Source of the DNA: a virus
Lineage: Duplodnaviria; Caudoviricetes
DNA length: 61,282 bases
Strand: one strand, 5' to 3'
IMG/VR virus record: IMGVR_UViG_3300033402_000012
Location: 1-61,282 of that record
Both the position numbers and the translations under genes were made by a program. The notes below the pieces were generated by a model that was not told the DNA's origin, ran no database searches, and worked only from the letters and a program-made list of their open reading frames with translations. How positions within the stretch are numbered: the stretch's first letter is position 1; every line of letters starts with the position of its first letter. Shown in pieces: positions 2,785 through 60,318 of the stretch.

Positions 2785-3534
2785 ATGAGCGTCCTACCGG
2801 GTGCGCTTCCGAAAGAAGCTATACATAAGATAGGTGTTCTTATTGGATTGGCCTGTTCTGGACGATTGATTCCACCGGAACTTGTGGTTTCAATGTCCAT
2901 GCAACCTAATCCAACCCACTTCTCTCATGGATTTCTAATTGTAAAAGGTCTTCCTGTTGACCAAGCAAGATGTATCTTAGCAGAAAAAGCCCTTGAAGTT
3001 GGCGCAAAGTATCTTTGGTTTGTTGATGATGATACCATTCCGCCACCCAATACTCTACAACGATTGGTTTATGTCTTAGATAACTATCCAGAGATGAAAG
3101 CAATTGGTGGAGTTTATGTGACGAAGGCTCCTGTTCCACAACCAGTTGTGTTTCGTGGAGAGGGATTGGGGTCTTTTTGGCATTGGAAGAAGGGCGAGAT
3201 TTTTGAGGTAACGGGGATTGGGGCAGGTTGTCTTTTAATAGCGACCGATGTGTTTAAGGAAATTCCTAAACCTTGGTTTGAGTTCATAGAGACACCTTCG
3301 TATGACCCAACCATTCCATCCAATTTGGTGAGTGAGGACATAAGTTTTTGTAACAAAGTTCGGGGGGCGGGATACCGGGTGTTCGCACACGGGGGAATTC
3401 TATGTGACCATTTTGATTGTGAAACAGGAAAGACCTATCAAATGGCACCTGACTCCTATCCGATGCGACCAGAAACAACAAGCTTAGCGGACCCCCTCCA
3501 ATTGGAGATTCCGCAAGAATCTAAAATTAAATAA
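2785..3534 (+). CDS. GT-A fold (GT2-like) glycosyltransferase
   Basis: LWFVDDD, GAGCLLI, SEDISFC, CDH motifs. Confidence 0.85.
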   Translation: MSVLPGALPKEAIHKIGVLIGLACSGRLIPPELVVSMSMQPNPTHFSHGFLIVKGLPVDQARCILAEKALEVGAKYLWFVDDDTIPPPNTLQRLVYVLDNYPEMKAIGGVYVTKAPVPQPVVFRGEGLGSFWHWKKGEIFEVTGIGAGCLLIATDVFKEIPKPWFEFIETPSYDPTIPSNLVSEDISFCNKVRGAGYRVFAHGGILCDHFDCETGKTYQMAPDSYPMRPETTSLADPLQLEIPQESKIK

Positions 3535-41054: not shown

Positions 41055-41792
41055 TTATGGTAGTGGGATTTCTTTGATAACCAGATAATCCGGCGTAGCA
41101 AATACAGTCTTGCCCCCAATGTTACACTTATAGGTCCCATCCTTCTCTCGCTTCATTTCCAACACCCGCTCGCCGTCAACTGTATAGACCACTTCGCGGA
41201 ACTGACGCATCTTAGGAACTAATCGACTCCATCGCATCTTCGCAGCGGATAGCTTAATCCCCAACTGGTCAGACGCTTCCTTCAATGAAAATCCTTCCCA
41301 CATCAATCGGAACAGTCGTTGGTCTTCAAGGGATAGAGACGCCAAGACAGCTTTCAATTTTTCGGGAAGTGCTCTTGAAATGGCATCAGAGGGCTGGTCA
41401 TGCTTGATTAAGTCGAGAGGGACTAACGCCTCACTTTCGTAGTTTTGGTGGTCATAGGCGTTGCGGACAGTGTTATTGATGATTGTGATTACCCACTTGT
41501 TAAAGGGTTCCGGGCGTGCGGAGTCCCAAGTGTTTAAGCCTTCCAACACTTTAAGCATTGAATCTTGAGCAAGGTCCTGATTGAAGTCTCGCCACGGAAA
41601 AAATCCCTTTTCTACATTGGCGCGAGTATAGCGGTGAGTAAACGTGAGAAGATACTGCCCAAGAGTTTCGTAATTAGAAGCAGACGGCTCGGCTCGGTAC
41701 AACTCCATTGCTTTATCAAGCAAACCCGCTTCGTCTAGGTCTGGAAATTGCTCCGACAAATCTTCTGGAAAAATCTGCATTGCATATGACAT
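41055..41792 (-). CDS. ECF-type sigma-70 factor
   Basis: Region 2 DLAQDSMLKV...FNKWVITIINN; region 4 EGFSLKEASDQLGIKLSAAKMRWSR. Confidence 0.88.
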   Translation of the reverse strand: MSYAMQIFPEDLSEQFPDLDEAGLLDKAMELYRAEPSASNYETLGQYLLTFTHRYTRANVEKGFFPWRDFNQDLAQDSMLKVLEGLNTWDSARPEPFNKWVITIINNTVRNAYDHQNYESEALVPLDLIKHDQPSDAISRALPEKLKAVLASLSLEDQRLFRLMWEGFSLKEASDQLGIKLSAAKMRWSRLVPKMRQFREVVYTVDGERVLEMKREKDGTYKCNIGGKTVFATPDYLVIKEIPLP

Positions 41793-48264: not shown

Positions 48265-49977
48265 TTATGGTTCTACAGATTCAAAGTGTCTACCACCAAG
48301 ACCCGGAACGAATACATTTACGCTTCCTGCTCTCGGCAGTGATGTTTCTACAACAGCCTGATTTGTACCACCCCTAATAGTTCCTTCATCTTGTTGTTGT
48401 ACGATGTCCGCTAGTTGTACGACTTCTCCTTCGGGAAATACCGTGTCCACCCGACTTAATGGCTGGACTTCGGGCGGTTCTCCCTTGCATTGAAAATCCT
48501 TGCCAACCAGTTTTTCGTAATTTTCTGCTTTGCAAACTGGTAGGCACCCGCTCTTTACCATCAATCTCCTAATCTCAAGAATAAGGTCCTTCTTGACCTC
48601 ACCATTCCGGTGACAATCCTGTGGAATGTGGAACTCAATGTTATCTGTACTCGACCCAATGGTTGTTCTTAACTGCCTTATTTCCTTACAGTTATCCTTG
48701 ATGTACTTCATCATCGCCTTGCGGTCGAACGCCATCTTGTACGGATGGATAACATGGATACAACCTCTCGATGCATGGTTGTTTATCGTCGCTGTGTATT
48801 GGTAGGCGACCATTCCCTGTGCTGTCTCTGTCGTTCCATAAGAGTGTGGTATTGCACCCACTCGACTGAACCCCGCTGGCATTCTAAAGGGCTTCCACGT
48901 TGGCTCCGGCAAATCCGCCTTGAACGGGATAGCCCCCGTAAACCATCGAAACAACTTCCTCACCGAATCCTCAGATGGTGGAATCACGGGAGGTATGTAC
49001 AAACTCGTTGGATTGAACTTGTGCGAATAAGGAACTAAATTCCAGTTATTCGAGAAGTTTTCCTCTTTGTATTGCGGCCATCCCAATACTTCAAGTGCAG
49101 CCAAAGCTATTCTTGCATCATCATCATCATTCGCATATGACCTAAGCAAATTCTTCATGGCGACCGGGAGGTTTGTTTCTTTTGTCCCAATATTCCCCAA
49201 ATTATGGAACACAGCCAACTTCGCAAATACCAATGTCAAATACGCCGATAACGGTGAGTGCAACCAAGTGGGCATCGTCCGATACTCAAATCCATGTGTT
49301 TGTGTTCGCCAATCCCCGGCTTTTCCATAGTTCGTAACTCTCCGCCGTCTCTGCGAACCCGATGTGTCAATCAAACAAAGTTTCTCTAAGATTGCTGTCA
49401 ACGTATCCAATGATGGAATAATAGACTCAATTGCTCCATGTCTTCGGCCAATGTGAATGTGACCTCCAATTCCATCATCAGCAAATAACCCCGGCGCGAG
49501 TAAATGAAAACGACTCAAGTTCCAAAACTCATTCCCCCAAGCCAACGTATCCATAATACTCGCCACAACTTCTAAAACAAATCGGCTCGGACAAACCCTC
49601 AACTCCGCCTGCCTTCCACTCATATCGCATCCAAGTGGGTCGAGTGTGGACATCCCAACATTCTGAGCATGTATGTAACGATAGCGGTCTTGTAATGCTG
49701 TTCCTGGCGGGAATCCAACTAAAGCGCCCGCAGCATTCCGCAGTGGTTCGCCAAGCACAAACTCTGGGTCGGCCCCTACACAAAACCGATTAACCAATCG
49801 TGGCACAACCGGAAATTTCATGCTTCGGTTCGCATAAAATCTCTTACGCCATTTCTCAAGAATATCCCTTGGCGCTCCTACTCCCGTAGCCATCGCAAAC
49901 TCCAAGAACTTCTTTTCGGTTACGCGATTGTCAACAACTGCCGAGAACAGGCGTCGTTTTTCATCCCTTAGATCCAT
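48265..49977 (-). CDS. phiEco32-like COOH-NH2 ligase type 2, copy 1
   Basis: GADPEF, AELR, GGHIHIG, RR...YG.AG.WR...HG.EYRT; probable ATG at 49977. Confidence 0.88.
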   Translation of the reverse strand: MDLRDEKRRLFSAVVDNRVTEKKFLEFAMATGVGAPRDILEKWRKRFYANRSMKFPVVPRLVNRFCVGADPEFVLGEPLRNAAGALVGFPPGTALQDRYRYIHAQNVGMSTLDPLGCDMSGRQAELRVCPSRFVLEVVASIMDTLAWGNEFWNLSRFHLLAPGLFADDGIGGHIHIGRRHGAIESIIPSLDTLTAILEKLCLIDTSGSQRRRRVTNYGKAGDWRTQTHGFEYRTMPTWLHSPLSAYLTLVFAKLAVFHNLGNIGTKETNLPVAMKNLLRSYANDDDDARIALAALEVLGWPQYKEENFSNNWNLVPYSHKFNPTSLYIPPVIPPSEDSVRKLFRWFTGAIPFKADLPEPTWKPFRMPAGFSRVGAIPHSYGTTETAQGMVAYQYTATINNHASRGCIHVIHPYKMAFDRKAMMKYIKDNCKEIRQLRTTIGSSTDNIEFHIPQDCHRNGEVKKDLILEIRRLMVKSGCLPVCKAENYEKLVGKDFQCKGEPPEVQPLSRVDTVFPEGEVVQLADIVQQQDEGTIRGGTNQAVVETSLPRAGSVNVFVPGLGGRHFESVEP

Positions 49978-50043
49978 TCTTCTTCTCCAACATCCACAAA
50001 GAATACCACCCCGAATACGAATGCTAACACATACCACCAAACT

Positions 50044-53120: not shown

Positions 53121-54284
53121 TCATGAGCTAATCCCCTTATATCCCGACATCACATATCCATACCACGACAGTTGAGAATGCTTTTCATTGTAGTCATCAT
53201 GTGCGGAATTCCCGAACAGCCAGTTCTTCGTCAAATCCTCCGGGTCGCTCACAATGCTTTCCACGCCATTCATCCCCAAATTAAAAATCGCTTCTCTTAC
53301 CATAATTGTCGGGAAAGCATAACTTTGCACCATCCAAATGAACATATCCCGGTTCAGTTCTAGCAACCTCCGCGCTTGCTTGACATCGCAATTGTTGACA
53401 ATCTCTCGAACTAAATCCTTGTCTGCAACCCACAAATCCCGATACTTCGTGTGCGCCAATTTCACACAAGCCCTTGCGACTTCCCATGTCGCATGGCAAA
53501 TCGCAGGATGGCACAGCCAATAATTCGACAAAACTCTGTACTCCACTCCGAGTAGGTCTTTACCATATTCAGAACTCTTCTTGTACGTTGGCGTCCGATA
53601 TTCCCCCGCTAGCCCATAATACTTTCTCCGAATAGGAGAATCAATGTTCGCGGCAACTCCAACCGCCCAAACAGCCAAAATCGAATCTAGCGTGTTTACA
53701 ATCTTAGCATATTCTGGTGGCTTTTCAGGAAACCATTTTCCAAAATGCAAATGTCCACCAGCAAACCGATACTTTAACTTCCTTGGATTCTCAACCTGAA
53801 TTCCGTGGTCGTCGTAGATATTCTCACTCGGAGAACACCCAAGCGCAACATGTTCTTGCTCGGCACTTAACAACATGGAGTCAGGAATCCTAAGCACATT
53901 TCTCATGGTCAACTTCGCGCCTTTTTCTCCGGCGCGCATTGCCAAGCCTTCCAAACACTTTCGCATCCCCAACGTGAAGTACATCAAGCATTCTTTTGGT
54001 TGAGCGCAAAACTCTGCCTGAAACCCATCCCAAAACGGAGTGCGCTGATAGAAAGCACCTGTTCTATATCCCGTATTGGCCTGAACCTTCGCTTCCTTCT
54101 TCGATGGCAAGAACTGAAATGCCGGGAAAACTTCATCGCCCTTCATCAAGAAGATTTCCGGGTCTGAGCCAATTGAGAAGGAAGTATATTCTTCTCCGGG
54201 AGTGTGCAGGTGAATACTTCTACTACGCACCCACTCCGCTTGATGACTCAACTCCCCTATCGTATTGAAATCAACCTTACTCAT
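53121..54284 (-). CDS. phiEco32-like COOH-NH2 ligase type 2, copy 2
   Basis: GSDPEIF, DGFQAEF, LGC.P..N.Y, RFAGGHLHFG, RRKYYG.AGEYR, GVEYRVLSN.W. Confidence 0.9.
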   Translation of the reverse strand: MSKVDFNTIGELSHQAEWVRSRSIHLHTPGEEYTSFSIGSDPEIFLMKGDEVFPAFQFLPSKKEAKVQANTGYRTGAFYQRTPFWDGFQAEFCAQPKECLMYFTLGMRKCLEGLAMRAGEKGAKLTMRNVLRIPDSMLLSAEQEHVALGCSPSENIYDDHGIQVENPRKLKYRFAGGHLHFGKWFPEKPPEYAKIVNTLDSILAVWAVGVAANIDSPIRRKYYGLAGEYRTPTYKKSSEYGKDLLGVEYRVLSNYWLCHPAICHATWEVARACVKLAHTKYRDLWVADKDLVREIVNNCDVKQARRLLELNRDMFIWMVQSYAFPTIMVREAIFNLGMNGVESIVSDPEDLTKNWLFGNSAHDDYNEKHSQLSWYGYVMSGYKGISS

Positions 54285-54320: not shown

Positions 54321-55826
54321 TCACTTTCCAAACTCGTCATAACACTGCTTGCACATCCGAACTCCGTCCCGTGAATACGAAACCTTGCTAACTGGTTCAT
54401 GGCACATCTCACAAATCATCAAATTGAATCCCGGCGCAGGTCCATACCTAATGGGAGTCGCTTCAGGAACGACCTCATACGACACTCTGTGACACTGCGT
54501 ACATTCTTCCTTCTTAAAGAAAGTCTCTGAATACTTTGCAGGTACGACCGAAGTCTCAATCCGTGCATTACACGTACAGAGCTTTATCGTAGGGTTCGTG
54601 ATTTTGGATGTCATCAACCCAATCCTCCAACCTGTGTCTCAATTCCCAATAAATCAGCTTCAAACGCCAAAATCTCGGCCTAATCAATCGAATATCCTGC
54701 AAAATCTCAAACTCAACAGCGTCCACCCACATCGCCTTGACATCCCCGCAAATCAAGCAATCCCAATACTCAAGCCGGAATGGATGCCGCTGGCGATGGA
54801 GCCACAAATGAGGACAGTGGAACATTCTTGCCTCCGTTCTCTTTTTCTTCAACAGCAAGCAACACAGCTTCAATCTCATCCAAAGTCAAGTCATCAAGTT
54901 GGAGGTACAAGGAACTTTGAATAGCTTGCAGATACTTTGGGTCAATAATCCACCCAAGTTCCTGATTGCGCTCATTTGCTCGCGGAAATCTAATCATTTT
55001 ATTCTCCGTAAAAAATTGCCTCTAGGATGTTTTTTAATCCATCTGTCCAATTCCGCGCATTCGTGGTACTCCATGTATTCGCCACCTTCTAATCCAAAAT
55101 ATTCTCGCGTATATACAAACCGCCCACAAACCTTACAACGATTTTTGTGTGTTTTTCTAGTAACCATGAATCCTCCAAACACATCTTCCAGTCACAACCA
55201 AACCCAAAATTGTCGCGCAAATGCCGATGATTGCATAGAGCCAAATCATATACGCTCCCGCTTAAAGAACTGACACCAACACAAATCCTCACCACGCTCA
55301 ATCCCCCATACGTCGCCGCAGAGCGGACATGAAGTTGCGTTTTCGGCATCATGTCCATCAGGATTTAAATTATCTAATAACCAATCAGCGAAACTTTCCC
55401 ATTTTTCATGTGTGTAAATGTCGCCTATCATATTGAAATCAACATCCCCTTCAAAAGTTTTTGGTCCTCATCTGTCAATTCAAGCTCGTTGTAGTCTTTC
55501 ACTTGCCCGGTTAATCGCGGACAATGTTCTTTCTTGTGTTCCTCAATGCTTTTTGCAAGTTCTTCTTTTGAGCGATTCCCTAAAATACAGTTACAATCGG
55601 GACACTTCCACAATCCGTCCATTCCCCCCAACAGTCCTTGTGCTTGGTCTGCTCGCGTCATGGGAACTTCATCGCATTGAGTCGCCGGGATTCCCAAATA
55701 CATCTTTTGCAAAGAGTGAATCGTCTCATGCAATTTGATTCGCTCGTCCAGGGCTTCCTGTGTGATAGCCACCAAATTCTTGTAGCATTGCATACATCGC
55801 CAAGTTTTCCAGACGATTGAACTCAT
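54321..55826 (-). other. Cluster of small, mostly Zn-binding early ORFs
   Basis: ORFs 54321-54617, 54770-54997, 54994-55182, 55246-55431, 55428-55826 with CxxC/CxxH motifs and coupled starts. Confidence 0.55.
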
Positions 55827-55898
55827 GTTAGCTCCCGTATGCTACATAAAAAGACGTTCAAGGAGACACACAAAAAAGAATGTGTCTCGTTCAGCGCC

Positions 55899-56102
55899 TT
55901 ACACACTCCTACTCCAACTCCTACTCCCACTCCCACTCCTACTCCAACTCCAACTCCCACTCCTACTCCCACTCCAACTCCTACTCCCACTCCAACTCCT
56001 ACTCCCACTCCCACTCCTACTCCAACTCCAACTCCCACTCCAACTCCCATTCCCACTCCTCCTCCAACTCCAACTCCCACTCCTACTCCTAAAGAGTGCC
56101 AT
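55899..56102 (-). CDS. 67-aa (R/G/W)-Ser dipeptide-repeat peptide
   Basis: ATG 3 nt after the upstream stop, preceded by GGAAGG. Confidence 0.6.
55905..56090. repeat. 31 x 6-bp tandem repeat (DGGAGT on the - strand)
   Basis: ACTCC(T/C/A) units on the + strand, two imperfect units. Confidence 0.95.
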
Positions 56103-56105
56103 CTT

Positions 56106-56366
56106 TTACTTTGACCTTCCAAAAGATTCAATTGCAGACCTTTGCACAAACCAAACATCGGAGTGGAGTTTTTGAGCGTCGGCATAGTCTTTGTTCGACC
56201 ACGCTCCCGTTTCATAAACAATCTTCGGGTTTTCTAGCTGAACAAATGAGTCGTTTACGCCCGTCAATTTACCTGTGTAGAAGTACGCAGAACAAATGAG
56301 TAATACTTGCTCTCCAAGTAAACTGTCCCAACCAACATCTTCAGTTACTTCAATTATCTTCTTCAA
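56106..56366 (-). CDS. Sm/LSm-like small beta-barrel protein
   Basis: LLGEQVLL...[17 protein letters not shown] (Sm1-like) and [11 protein letters not shown] (Sm2-like); probable TTG start after AAGGAG. Confidence 0.55.
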
Positions 56367-56553: not shown

Positions 56554-57128
56554 TCATATCAAAACTCCCTGTTGATGTAGGATAAATCTCACAATCTGTA
56601 TTCCAAACCACACTCCCATAGCAGCCGCGCCCACAAACAGCAAAATTGTGAATATCCCTAACAAAATTGCCATCGGAACAAAACGGCGCATATTCATCGG
56701 CATCGGCTCCCTATCCACAATCCTAATAGGAAACAAAAGACTCCATATGCCCAAAGGAGCAATTGATTTTTGTCAATTATTAGCCACGGTTTCATTTACG
56801 CAATCCTTCTCGCGGTCAATTGGTAAAACTTCTGCCGCGCAAACGGAATCAACTCAATGCAAACTCCATATCTCCGCCTGAGCATCCCGTCAATCCACCT
56901 GTCCATGTTCAAATCGTTCGCCCCGGCATGTTTCGCCAATTGTTTCGCGGCCCAAGTTGCATGTCTAATGGCCGAATCCACATTCCTACGCCCAAGTTCA
57001 TTGTGAAACTCCTGCAATGTACAGCCATTCCGCAACCCTGCTCTATATCCACGTTTTAGCATGGCATTCTCCTTAGCCGAGAATTCATCCAGCGCCACTT
57101 GCTTATCCCGGCAAATGACGCTGGTCAA
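56554..57128 (-). other. Two small early ORFs (membrane peptide 56554-56754; 56796-57128)
   Basis: Co-directional ORFs. Confidence 0.5.
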
Positions 57129-57227
57129 TCCTCAACCGGGCTTCATAGCGCCTCACTTTCGCTTTTCAACACAGTTTTCATCGCGGAGTGCCGACTGACT
57201 GCTCAAAAGTCATATCGGCACTCACCA

Positions 57228-57309
57228 ACAACGGCCATCATCAGGCAAGGCATTACCTTGCGGCAAGAGCCACCACGCTCACGACTGATGGCTCTTGTTT
57301 CGGCCTTGT
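57228..57309 (-). ncRNA. Type II hammerhead-like ribozyme B (GCC triplet)
   Basis: ACAAGGCC-GAAA-CAAGAGCCAUCA..UGGUGGCUCUUG-C-C-GCAAGGUAAUGCCUUGC-CUGAUGA-U-GGCCGUUGU. Confidence 0.75.
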
Positions 57310-57323
57310 GCGCCCAAAACCGC

Positions 57324-57635
57324 TTACTTGTTGTACTTCGCAAACAACTCCGCTCGGAGTTCGGGCGTCAAAACGTCAATCGCCTTCTCCGCAGCGTGAG
57401 CCGTTCTCTCCGCGTACACCGTCGGCTCCGCGATGTCCAGAAAGTTCACGCAAAATGTGACCTGCATTCGACCCACTTTCCCATCGGTGCCGGGTACTTC
57501 CACTGCTGGCACATTCAGGTTAATCGTCCGGGTTGTCGCCATCTGCCGACCCTTTGTCCCGTAAGTCTTGAACGTCAAGGCTTCCTTTTCGACGGACTTC
57601 GCTATGTCCGCCAACAGTTCTCTCAAATTGTCCAC
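57324..57635 (-). CDS. 103-aa orphan protein between the two hammerheads
   Basis: AGAGGTG RBS; clean ORF. Confidence 0.7.
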   Translation of the reverse strand: MDNLRELLADIAKSVEKEALTFKTYGTKGRQMATTRTINLNVPAVEVPGTDGKVGRMQVTFCVNFLDIAEPTVYAERTAHAAEKAIDVLTPELRAELFAKYNK

Positions 57636-57695
57636 AAATCACCTCTTTGACCAAATTTACAAGTTCGGGCGGTCACTTCCCAAACAGGATAACCT

Positions 57696-57809
57696 GTGAC
57701 CGTAGTCATCAGGATAGCTGGTAGCTATCTACGAGCGGTTTCAAACTATTGTCGTAAGCACGACTAAGCCACCGCTCGTTTCGACGTTACAACCGTCAAA
57801 TTCGGTCAC
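57696..57809 (-). ncRNA. Type II hammerhead-like ribozyme A (GUA triplet, irregular stem II)
   Basis: GAAA-CGAGCGGU..ACCGCUCG-U-A-GAUAGCUACCAGCUAUC-CUGAUGA. Confidence 0.7.
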
Positions 57810-57949
57810 TTCCCGTGAATCTTGCTACTCCCAACAACCTGTGTGATGTCGTAGCGATTGCCGTGTGGCGAAACATGTAATGCTAAAACAAGCCATTTCA
57901 ACGGTCGTACTTTGCTCTGAACAACCCGAAACGGTGCCATGACTCTCAT
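57806..57949 (-). CDS. 47-aa hypothetical peptide
   Basis: Read manually; GGAG upstream; stops where hammerhead A begins. Confidence 0.4.
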   Translation of the reverse strand: MRVMAPFRVVQSKVRPLKWLVLALHVSPHGNRYDITQVVGSSKIHGK

Positions 57950-58046
57950 GTGATGTCACTCCAATCATCGTCCATTCGGTGCCTCACTTTCACTCCAACG
58001 AAAAGCCGCAGTTTGTATTCAAAGTACTAAGAATCTTAGAATCTTC

Positions 58047-58460: not shown

Positions 58461-58840
58461 ATCTGTTTGGACCCCTTCCTTGTTTAGCGAACAAATAGCG
58501 AATGATTCCCGATGAAATGATACTGCATGTATGATTTGTCGCCTATCAGGGAACGTTCTTTACATGAAATCTGAATCGTGCGGCTCTCACACTAACGAAA
58601 GTCCGCAAATTGTACTAAGCTAGTAGTAAATTACAAAAGATTTAAGAAACTGCTGGCGATGGCGAAGACATAGGAAAGACAGCACCATCCCAAGTTGTAG
58701 ACTCCATTGAGTTTAGGCTTCGGGCCACGGGGCTTTCGGCTATCACACGGTCATGCCCAGACGCGGATATGAAATCAGAATGCCCTGTGTGTCTTTTATA
58801 CCACACTTTGTTGTTAGATAGACACTTTGGGCATAACTTA

Positions 58841-59216: not shown

Positions 59217-59699
59217 TTGGACCCTATGGCTAGACCAGAGAAGTTGGAGGAAGGTTTTAGATACTGTAAACGTTGCGACACTACAAAATCACTCTCTGAA
59301 TTTCACCGCGATAAGAATGAATCTGGTGGGCATAAATACACCTGTAAAAGCTGTGGCCGAGCTTATTCCCTCCATTATAGTCGTCAGCATATAGGTAGAC
59401 AAAAAGAAAATAACAAAAGAGTAAGGGATAGGGTTCGAGCAAAAGTTTTAAGTCTCTTAGGGGATAAATGTAAGCATTGTGGTATAACTGATAAGAGGGT
59501 TTTACAAATTGACCATATTGATGGTGGCGGGGCTAAAGAACTTAGAGCTATTGGTAATACTTACAAATACTTAAAATTGATTTTGCAAATGCCAATTTTT
59601 GATGCTCTACAAAAATATCAACTTCTCTGTGCTAACTGTAACTGGATAAAGAAATTCGAGAATAATGAGGGAGTAAATGGGACGCCCCGAACGGCTTGA
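59217..59699 (+). CDS. HNH endonuclease with N-terminal Zn ribbon
   Basis: CKRC..CKSC; CKHCG...LQIDHIDG...LLCANCNW. Confidence 0.85.
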   Translation: MDPMARPEKLEEGFRYCKRCDTTKSLSEFHRDKNESGGHKYTCKSCGRAYSLHYSRQHIGRQKENNKRVRDRVRAKVLSLLGDKCKHCGITDKRVLQIDHIDGGGAKELRAIGNTYKYLKLILQMPIFDALQKYQLLCANCNWIKKFENNEGVNGTPRTA

Positions 59700-60111: not shown

Positions 60112-60318
60112 GTGTCAGACTGTAAAGCTTGTGATGCTGGTGATGCACCAATTCAAGAAGGAAATGGAAGTTGGTGGCATAATTGGCAATATCAAGTTCG
60201 TCCAAAACCACGACCCGGACAATATTATCCATACATGAGAGCGGAACTGATTCGTTGCTCGAATCGAGGGGTGACTAAGTGGAGGCTAGTAAAATTGATG
60301 AAGCTCTCTCAATCTTAA
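60112..60318 (+). CDS. Small hypothetical protein
   Basis: CxxC...H...C; between terS-like and terL. Confidence 0.4.
   Translation: MSDCKACDAGDAPIQEGNGSWWHNWQYQVRPKPRPGQYYPYMRAELIRCSNRGVTKWRLVKLMKLSQS

Follow-up and report, generated by a model that had tools for sequence, protein, structure and literature searches.

Two hammerhead-type motifs, as judged from nucleotide sequence, bracket an open reading frame (ORF) for a 103-amino-acid protein in the genome of a peat phage. The stretch of DNA analysed, hereafter called the window, is the complete 61,282-bp IMG/VR virus record IMGVR_UViG_3300033402_000012, which carries direct terminal repeats. The motifs upstream and downstream of the ORF, which we call site A and site B, respectively, are located on the minus strand, as is the ORF itself. 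The best explanation for this arrangement, and one that we consider reasonably probable, is that elements of the type II hammerhead family, which in this group of peat phages are positioned directly after stop codons, would cut an early polycistronic RNA in cis to yield hairpin-capped mRNAs. In addition, site A appears to carry a predicted fourth helix in place of the usual stem II, and homology between related phages breaks at or next to several of these elements.

An original prediction, made from the sequence of the window, had proposed GAAA, a long stem III, a 7-bp stem I and CUGAUGA in both gaps, two specific cleavage positions and a dedicated ribosome-binding site (RBS) for the ORF. All of these sequence and helix elements are present, the two cuts fall where they had been placed when the core is read, and the RBS, AAGAGGUG, stands 5 nt before the GTG start. 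The features of the locus are as follows.

57809-57696, minus strand: site A, whole element, with GAAA, long stem III, 7-bp stem I and CUGAUGA
57803-57809, minus strand: site A, 5' strand GUGACCG of the outer (fourth) helix, which overlaps the UGA stop codon of a 47-amino-acid ORF and pairs with 57702-57696 in the minimum free energy (MFE) structure
57783-57797, minus strand: site A, closed hairpin IIa, GACG-GUUGUAA-CGUC, 4 bp, directly 5' of G12
57779-57782, minus strand: site A, GAAA (G12, A13, A14, A15.1), identified by sequence
57731-57778, minus strand: site A, stem III, 8 bp plus the A15.1-U16.1 pair (U16.1 at 57731), with a long inner hairpin insert
Between 57730 (A17) and 57729 (G), minus strand: site A, predicted cut after the triplet GUA, from the core alignment
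57713-57729, minus strand: site A, stem I hairpin, 7 bp (GAUAGCU at 57729-57723 with AGCUAUC at 57719-57713), loop ACC
57706-57712, minus strand: site A, core CUGAUGA (C3-A9), identified by sequence
57696-57705, minus strand: site A, linker CUA (57705-57703) and outer helix 3' strand CGGUCAC (57702-57696)
57324-57635, minus strand: the 103-amino-acid ORF, GTG start, with a good RBS
57233-57305, minus strand: site B, a type II hammerhead homolog
57305-57302 with 57236-57233, minus strand: site B, stem II, GGCC/GGCC, extendable
57301-57298, minus strand: site B, GAAA
57297-57286 with 57275-57264, minus strand: site B, stem III, 12 bp
57263 and 57262, minus strand: site B, C16.1 and C17, with the predicted cut at 57262/57261 after the triplet GCC
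57261-57255 with 57251-57245, minus strand: site B, stem I, 7 bp
57244-57238, minus strand: site B, core CUGAUGA, with an extra U (57237) after A9

The sequence CTGATGA is not by itself enriched in the window (9 occurrences observed, 10.6 expected), and only two of the nine have a hammerhead layout. When the pattern is extended to GAAAC-N50-80-CCTGATGA, two examples are present where shuffled sequences give an expectation of 0.16. Neither element has lost any of the invariant core bases of hammerheads (clan CL00010; G12-A13-A14 plus A15.1, and CUGAUGA), and all helices are long and perfectly paired. A covariance model, R1, was built from eight canonical type II hammerheads of related phages, with the window excluded, and was used with filters off to scan all 61,282 bases. 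Site B is recovered at 34.1 bits (E value of 2.5e-7) and site A at 20.1 bits (E value of 0.002), the next match in the window reaches 11.8 bits (E value of 0.44), and nothing else is significant. In an alignment of 11 family members, which was fitted to the model in a manner that favours structure, 98.6% of cells are paired, compared with approximately 30% for slid controls. Changes on both sides are evident in 10 of 13 pairs, including 6 of 6 in stem I, and the covariation score was reached by none of 500 shuffles. Given these matches and this covariation, we judge both elements of the window to be homologs of a real hammerhead family, and each is by sequence a member or derivative of the covarying type II group.

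Relatives of the locus strengthen this assignment. A search with the terminase uncovered 22 related viral loci, and homologs of the 103-amino-acid ORF were found in five other lineages by tblastn and two further scans.

L007 and its near-identical copies L009, L024, L025 and L028: ORF homolog with 43% identity, canonical hammerheads on both sides
L026: ORF homolog with 90% identity, upstream flank only, site A-type element upstream
L027: ORF homolog with 56% identity, no hammerhead
L029 and L030: ORF homologs with 41-42% identity, canonical hammerheads at or within a few nucleotides of the stop codon

The expectation that ORF homologs in related phages would also be flanked by ribozymes with covarying stems was borne out, in that canonical type II hammerheads with different, compensating stems accompany them. 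Both sides of the ORF homolog are occupied in L007 and L030. The upstream hammerhead of L007 has a GUC site and the core sequence CUGACGA, and its downstream counterpart has a GUA site. L029 carries a second hammerhead in tandem, and both L029 and L030 carry further examples nearby. Three additional relatives of the ORF (P0001-P0003) stand at 99%, 87% and 59%. No match to the region was found by blastn against the phage collection, and no related loci were recovered by a single-ORF search of viral contigs or by a search of genome contigs with alignment A2. An exact scan of viral contigs with a 15-mer from the ORF leader returned 45 loci, all of them chance-like and in unrelated contexts.

Although the original prediction assigned a type II layout to both sites, this description holds only for site B, which has an open stem II and departs from the layout only by the single U inserted after A9. 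Site B forms an ordinary three-way junction in the predicted structure (RNAfold z score of -4.0). In site A, stem II is closed and a fourth helix is present. This element is canonical in its core bases, its A15.1-U16.1 pair, its GUA site, stem I and stem III (CGAGCGGU at 57778-57771 pairing with ACCGCUCG at 57739-57732), but not in stem II. Rather than entering an open stem II, the RNA chain continues after A9 into CUA and the 3' strand of the 7-bp outer helix, CGGUCAC, which pairs with the GUGACCG located 107 nt upstream. A closed hairpin (IIa) precedes G12, and its closing G-C pair occupies the place of G10.1-C11.1. The MFE structure is a four-way junction (RNAfold z score of -6.0), and in this structural model the hammerhead is circularly permuted: the chain is broken within its core, between A9 and G10.1, and the fourth helix bridges the gap. 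The six permutation types described by Eckert et al. (2023, NAR) were derived, according to the portion of that work available to us, on the assumption that the CUGAnGA block is never interrupted. Since the block joining CUGAnGA to stem II is interrupted in site A, the element lies outside those six types, and we regard the modelled four-helix connectivity as a candidate new variant.

The same layout is found upstream of the ORF homolog in L026, where an outer helix (UGACCG/CGGUCA), a hairpin abutting GAAA and a GUU site are all evident. The stem of hairpin IIa covaries there (GGGG/CCCC, with A-U changed to G-C and C-G changed to G-C), and its 7-nt loop, GU(U/A)GUAA, is conserved. Stem III is entirely different in sequence and is still paired, and the MFE structure is again a four-way junction (z score of -5.8). 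A long-range pairing of 57808-57798 with 57661-57651, seen in the MFE structure of a 203-nt segment, was dropped as a candidate because it is not kept in L026. A scan of IMG/VR for the hairpin IIa loop together with GAAAC and CTGATGA gave no matches, although the window's own record may be excluded from that scan, and an exact scan of viral contigs with a 16-mer from the 3' half of site A yielded 14 loci, all chance-like and in unrelated contexts.

Several repeated or paired sequences adjoin the two motifs. A 12-nt direct repeat, GGGAAGTGACCG, brackets site A at 57814-57803 and 57681-57670 on the minus strand. Its upstream copy contains the stop codon of the 47-amino-acid ORF and also contributes a strand to the outer helix, and its downstream copy, which lies in the leader of the 103-amino-acid ORF, is also found in L026 and L030. 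This downstream copy places a second GUGACCG at 57676-57670, an alternative partner for CGGUCAC. Just downstream of site B and before the next ORF, positions 57180-57222 of the minus strand contain a stable 9-bp hairpin, GAGUGCCGA...UCGGCACUC. By comparison with its homolog in L027, the ORF that follows this hairpin may truly start at an internal ATG near 57062.

Homology, structure and covariation were computed in the current study, and from these we infer cleavage, the chemistry of the resulting ends and any stabilizing effect. According to the mechanism we favour, each ribozyme would fold during transcription of the polycistronic RNA and cut after position 17. Because of the order of elements in a type II hammerhead, both products would have hairpin-capped ends: the stem III hairpin and a 2',3'-cyclic phosphate would form the 3' end of the upstream RNA, and in the downstream RNA the stem I hairpin would come immediately after a 5'-OH. 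Such 3' hairpins and 5'-OH/hairpin starts are expected to slow exonucleases and RNases that depend on the 5' end. The products would thus be single-gene mRNAs that resist 3' exonucleases and 5'-end-dependent RNases, and the stability and translation of each cistron could be set independently. After cleavage at site A, the second GUGACCG could capture CGGUCAC, which would free the upstream fragment and disfavour religation.

This explanation has a clear precedent. Gene-flanking hammerhead clusters, as well as proposals for mRNA processing and for circles, have already been published by Perreault et al. (2011, PLoS Comput Biol; PMC3088659). In that report, clustered hammerheads flank single genes in prophages, three of the arrangements cleave in vitro, and processing of long transcripts into single-gene mRNAs was proposed for phage clusters. 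The view in the original prediction that an early transcript is processed into a monocistronic RNA is therefore a reasonable one, as it matches both that proposal and the reported cleavage.

A number of observations weigh against our preferred explanation. The five sequencing runs listed as containing this stretch are all DNA metagenomes from peat, with no RNA run among them, and cleavage is predicted from sequence. No hammerhead in the window was reported by Rfam at the gathering score, nor at E values of 10 or below on 57100-57950 (851 nt), so the Rfam search put forward with the original prediction gave no support. Neither element reaches the RF02276 gathering cut-off of 37 bits. However, the same Rfam library missed several plainly canonical relatives at E values of 1 or below; one hammerhead of L030 (863-922) scores 37.4 bits, only just above that cut-off, and another in L002 scores 26.2 bits. 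The Rfam model therefore seems insensitive for this group, and its null result is not a strong negative. The R1 model fits site A only by mis-using G8 and A9 as stem II. In addition, no consistent pseudoknot between loop I and the tail 3' of stem II, a feature that is frequent though not universal in type II hammerheads, was evident over 12 elements, the best complementarity being 2-5 nt including G-U pairs. Hammerheads are also sporadic, with an R1 match in only one of five related full records, and in L027 none was found beside the ORF homolog by descriptor, R1 or Rfam.

Other concerns are specific to each element. Only two site A-type sequences are known, from the window and L026, and their 3' halves are almost identical. 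Site A breaks the rule that stem II directly follows CUGAnGA, and, according to Eckert et al. (2023, NAR), no known hammerhead alignment has more than 1-2 nt inserted between CUGAnGA and the stems. Site B lacks the A15.1-U16.1 pair, since C16.1 lies opposite A15.1, and it is the sole such case among the 11 aligned members. According to Perreault et al. (2011; PMC3088659), this pair is the most conserved in hammerheads, mutants at 15.1/16.1 are at least 10-fold less active, and such a mispair was used to reject candidates. Contigs of the three runs that cover 57263 agree, and therefore C16.1 is not an assembly slip. As its sequence has C16.1 facing A15.1 and an additional U behind A9, site B is probably either inactive or much slower than its relatives. 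If the 3' end of the ORF message were made in some other way, the long stem III hairpin of site B would still cap it.

We consider it unlikely, but worth keeping in view, that the two elements are decayed relics, i.e. descendants of hammerheads that no longer cleave and that persist only as neutral remnants or as stable intergenic hairpins serving in 3'-end protection or translational insulation. By this account, site B died through C16.1 and its extra U, and site A through its broken CUGAnGA-stem II block. The singular mispair of site B is in keeping with such decay, as are the R1 scores of 34 and 20 bits where relatives score 50-79, the lack of an Rfam match and the remark by Perreault et al. 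(2011) that some clustered hammerheads may be non-functional. Decay is harder to reconcile with cores that retain every invariant base and helices that are uniformly long and perfectly paired. Moreover, the layout of site A, including the loop of hairpin IIa, is kept in L026 despite divergence of the surrounding 200 nt to 22/60 identity, which argues for selection on this exact architecture. Also counted against decay is the agreement among DNA contigs, those of four runs matching the window exactly in every stretch of overlap and showing no variants, with three runs spanning site A and three spanning site B.

The divergence between the window and L026 has a sharp boundary. Just before the predicted cut of site A, 22 of 60 positions are identical, and just after it 55 of 60 are, the switch falling exactly at the cut. 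The two genomes are approximately 90% identical on both sides of the diverged segment, which consists of the 47-amino-acid ORF (57806-57949, minus strand; UGA stop at 57808-57806; 38% protein identity with its L026 counterpart) and the 5' half of the ribozyme. A comparable joint separates L029 and L030, which are near-identical through the ORF up to GUC, carry compensating changes in stem I and are unrelated beyond the core. Homology between L007 and both L028 and L009 stops 3 nt past the downstream hammerhead, and that between L007 and both L010 and L021 stops 40 nt before the upstream one. Homology breakpoints at or next to hammerheads appear to be new. We tentatively entertain, while thinking it less than likely, the combined proposal that site A and its L026 counterpart are catalytically active four-way-junction hammerheads, representing a fourth circular permutation in which all three canonical stems are closed by loops, and that hammerhead halves act as portable ends of gene modules, such that the exchanged unit runs from cleavage site to cleavage site.

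These same breakpoints could be taken to mean that the elements serve primarily at the level of DNA, where hammerhead halves would mark, and perhaps favour, the points at which gene modules are exchanged. A module would then be the stretch between two cleavage sites, with RNA cleavage being secondary. The switch at the cut between the window and L026, the end of L029-L030 homology past GUC with its compensated stem I, and the two boundaries seen with L007 all agree with such a role. Nevertheless, mosaic joints in phages are common at gene boundaries, which is exactly where these ribozymes sit, and the breakpoint is at the cut itself in only two pairs. Selection for an intact ribozyme alone would confine crossovers to the junction between hairpins, and the pattern may reflect only the survival of joints at gene boundaries and of crossovers that spare the ribozyme. 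We therefore think it quite improbable that exchange is the primary role, and we note that such a role is compatible with transcript cleavage and does not exclude it.

More doubtful still is the proposal, raised in the original prediction, that a 468-nt RNA is excised and circularized, either by RtcB or by the reverse reaction of the ribozyme, and so becomes an mRNA cassette that is circular or special in some other way. The product ends of hammerheads, a 5'-OH and a 2',3'-cyclic phosphate, are well suited to RtcB. Pairing is possible in the window between the GGCC of site B and a GGUC that lies within CUACGGUCAC of site A, and the placement of module boundaries at cleavage sites would fit a unit defined by RNA. 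The calculated length of 468 nt is arithmetically right, but release of this RNA depends on cutting by site B, whose activity is doubtful because of C16.1. A search of the phage for RtcB gave no matches (the control was positive in 10 of 14 genomes). In neither L007 (GACU and GGCC) nor L030 (GCCU and GGCC) do the two flanking hammerheads have stem II strands that complement each other, and a hybrid hammerhead capable of ligation is therefore not conserved. Perreault et al. (2011; PMC3088659) report that a search for circles or spliced RNAs derived from such clusters revealed neither. We accordingly regard circularization as very unlikely.

Finally, a chance resemblance to the hammerhead consensus, which could be read into the missing Rfam match and the ordinary frequency of CTGATGA, can be set aside almost entirely given the two R1 E values, the excess of the layout pattern over shuffles and the finding that relatives have canonical hammerheads in equivalent positions next to this gene.

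The genomic setting agrees with expression of the ORF from an early transcript. Structural and packaging genes, such as the terminase at 60279, are on the plus strand, and an HNH endonuclease (59217-59699, plus strand) adjoins the terminase genes. A minus-strand block from approximately 58460 down to approximately 31400 encodes DNA polymerase A, a PD-(D/E)XK nuclease, AAA ATPases, a sigma factor and phiEco32-type COOH-NH2 ligases, and it is therefore the leftward early, or replication, arm. The 103-amino-acid ORF is near the start of this arm, downstream of a sigma70-like promoter at 58636-58609 (minus strand). Its product has no Pfam match, no PHROG family and no usable Atlas match. An AlphaFold2 (AF2) model has a mean predicted local distance difference test (pLDDT) score of 69 and a predicted template modelling (pTM) score of 0.42, and a Foldseek comparison with the PDB gave no match at an E value of 0.001 or below.

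Some additional features of the window and its relatives deserve mention in their own right. A 24-nt motif, TGCGGnnTTTCGTTnGnGTGAnAG, occurs twice on the minus strand (57987-58010 and 58584-58607; 0.02 expected by chance). One copy directly follows the sigma70-like promoter and both are kept in L026, and these may be promoter-proximal leader or operator elements. The phage encodes a sigma-70-type factor, two phiEco32-like COOH-NH2 ligase proteins, a glutamine amidotransferase and an ATP-grasp-like protein (41055-41792, 48265-50040 and 53121-54284, minus strand). Positions 55839-56114 consist of a long, near-perfect hexanucleotide repeat that is read as (Gly-Val)n within a 132-amino-acid minus-strand ORF (55823-56221), whereas the opposite strand gives (Pro-Thr)n. 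Among relatives, L022, a distant one with a terminase that is 24% identical, carries a Twister-P5 ribozyme (2824-2878, minus strand; 61 bits, cut-off 37.6) approximately 3.1 kb upstream of the terminase and on the opposite strand, in the same general region as the hammerheads of the window. The downstream spacer of L027 (674-780, plus strand) contains two hairpins bracketed by the direct repeat ACACGGG, with no Rfam match at an E value of 1 or below. In L002 (4660-4732, minus strand), the 5' start of a hammerhead, CCGAAACGGGGGAU, is duplicated in tandem, and this creates two alternative GAAA registers for one ribozyme.

The arrangement described here most closely resembles the clustered type II hammerheads of phages and prophages (Perreault et al. 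2011; RF02276), with which it shares the order of GAAA, stem III hairpin, cleavage site, stem I hairpin and CUGAnGA, as well as the flanking of single genes of unassigned function by several ribozymes in a phage operon, where transcript cutting has been proposed. Departures from RF02276 are the C16.1 of site B, the absence from site A of the open stem II on which the definition of type II rests, scores below the Rfam cut-off for both elements, and the lack of a consistent pseudoknot. As with the permuted hammerheads (types I/II/III and the non-circular SGC, CSG and GCS forms) of Eckert et al. (2023), a common core and three helices are joined in another connectivity. All six of those types keep the block made up of a stem I strand, CUGAnGA and a stem II strand uninterrupted, whereas site A splits it, with the 5' strand of stem II placed upstream in a closed hairpin and with CUA and a fourth helix after A9.

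Retrozymes and viroid-like circular RNAs likewise contain an RNA unit bounded by two hammerhead cuts that generate 5'-OH and 2',3'-cyclic phosphate ends. In those systems, repeats of the same ribozyme are present, the ends of the unit rebuild one hammerhead, and the RNAs are non-coding or replicating. By contrast, the unit in the window is a gene of a DNA phage, the ribozymes on its two sides differ from each other and their stem II strands are for the most part incompatible, and circles are unsupported. A functional analogy can also be drawn with the early mRNA of phage T7, which is cut between genes by the host protein enzyme RNase III to leave 5'-phosphate and 3'-OH ends and stable, hairpin-ended mRNAs. 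An early polycistronic RNA is divided between genes in both cases, but the cut in the window would be catalysed by RNA.

That hammerheads flank genes in phages has been known since 2011, and on the question of their purpose this locus contributes nothing of a categorically new kind. It is instead a compact case in which one gene is accompanied by one unusual and one possibly crippled ribozyme, with close relatives carrying canonical versions. If site A cleaves, then the hammerhead core tolerates a break of the chain between A9 and G10.1, and such forms would have been systematically missed because current search descriptors assume that a break at this location is impossible. If breakpoints at cleavage sites hold in more genomes, RNA processing sites would be linked to the modular evolution of phage early regions.

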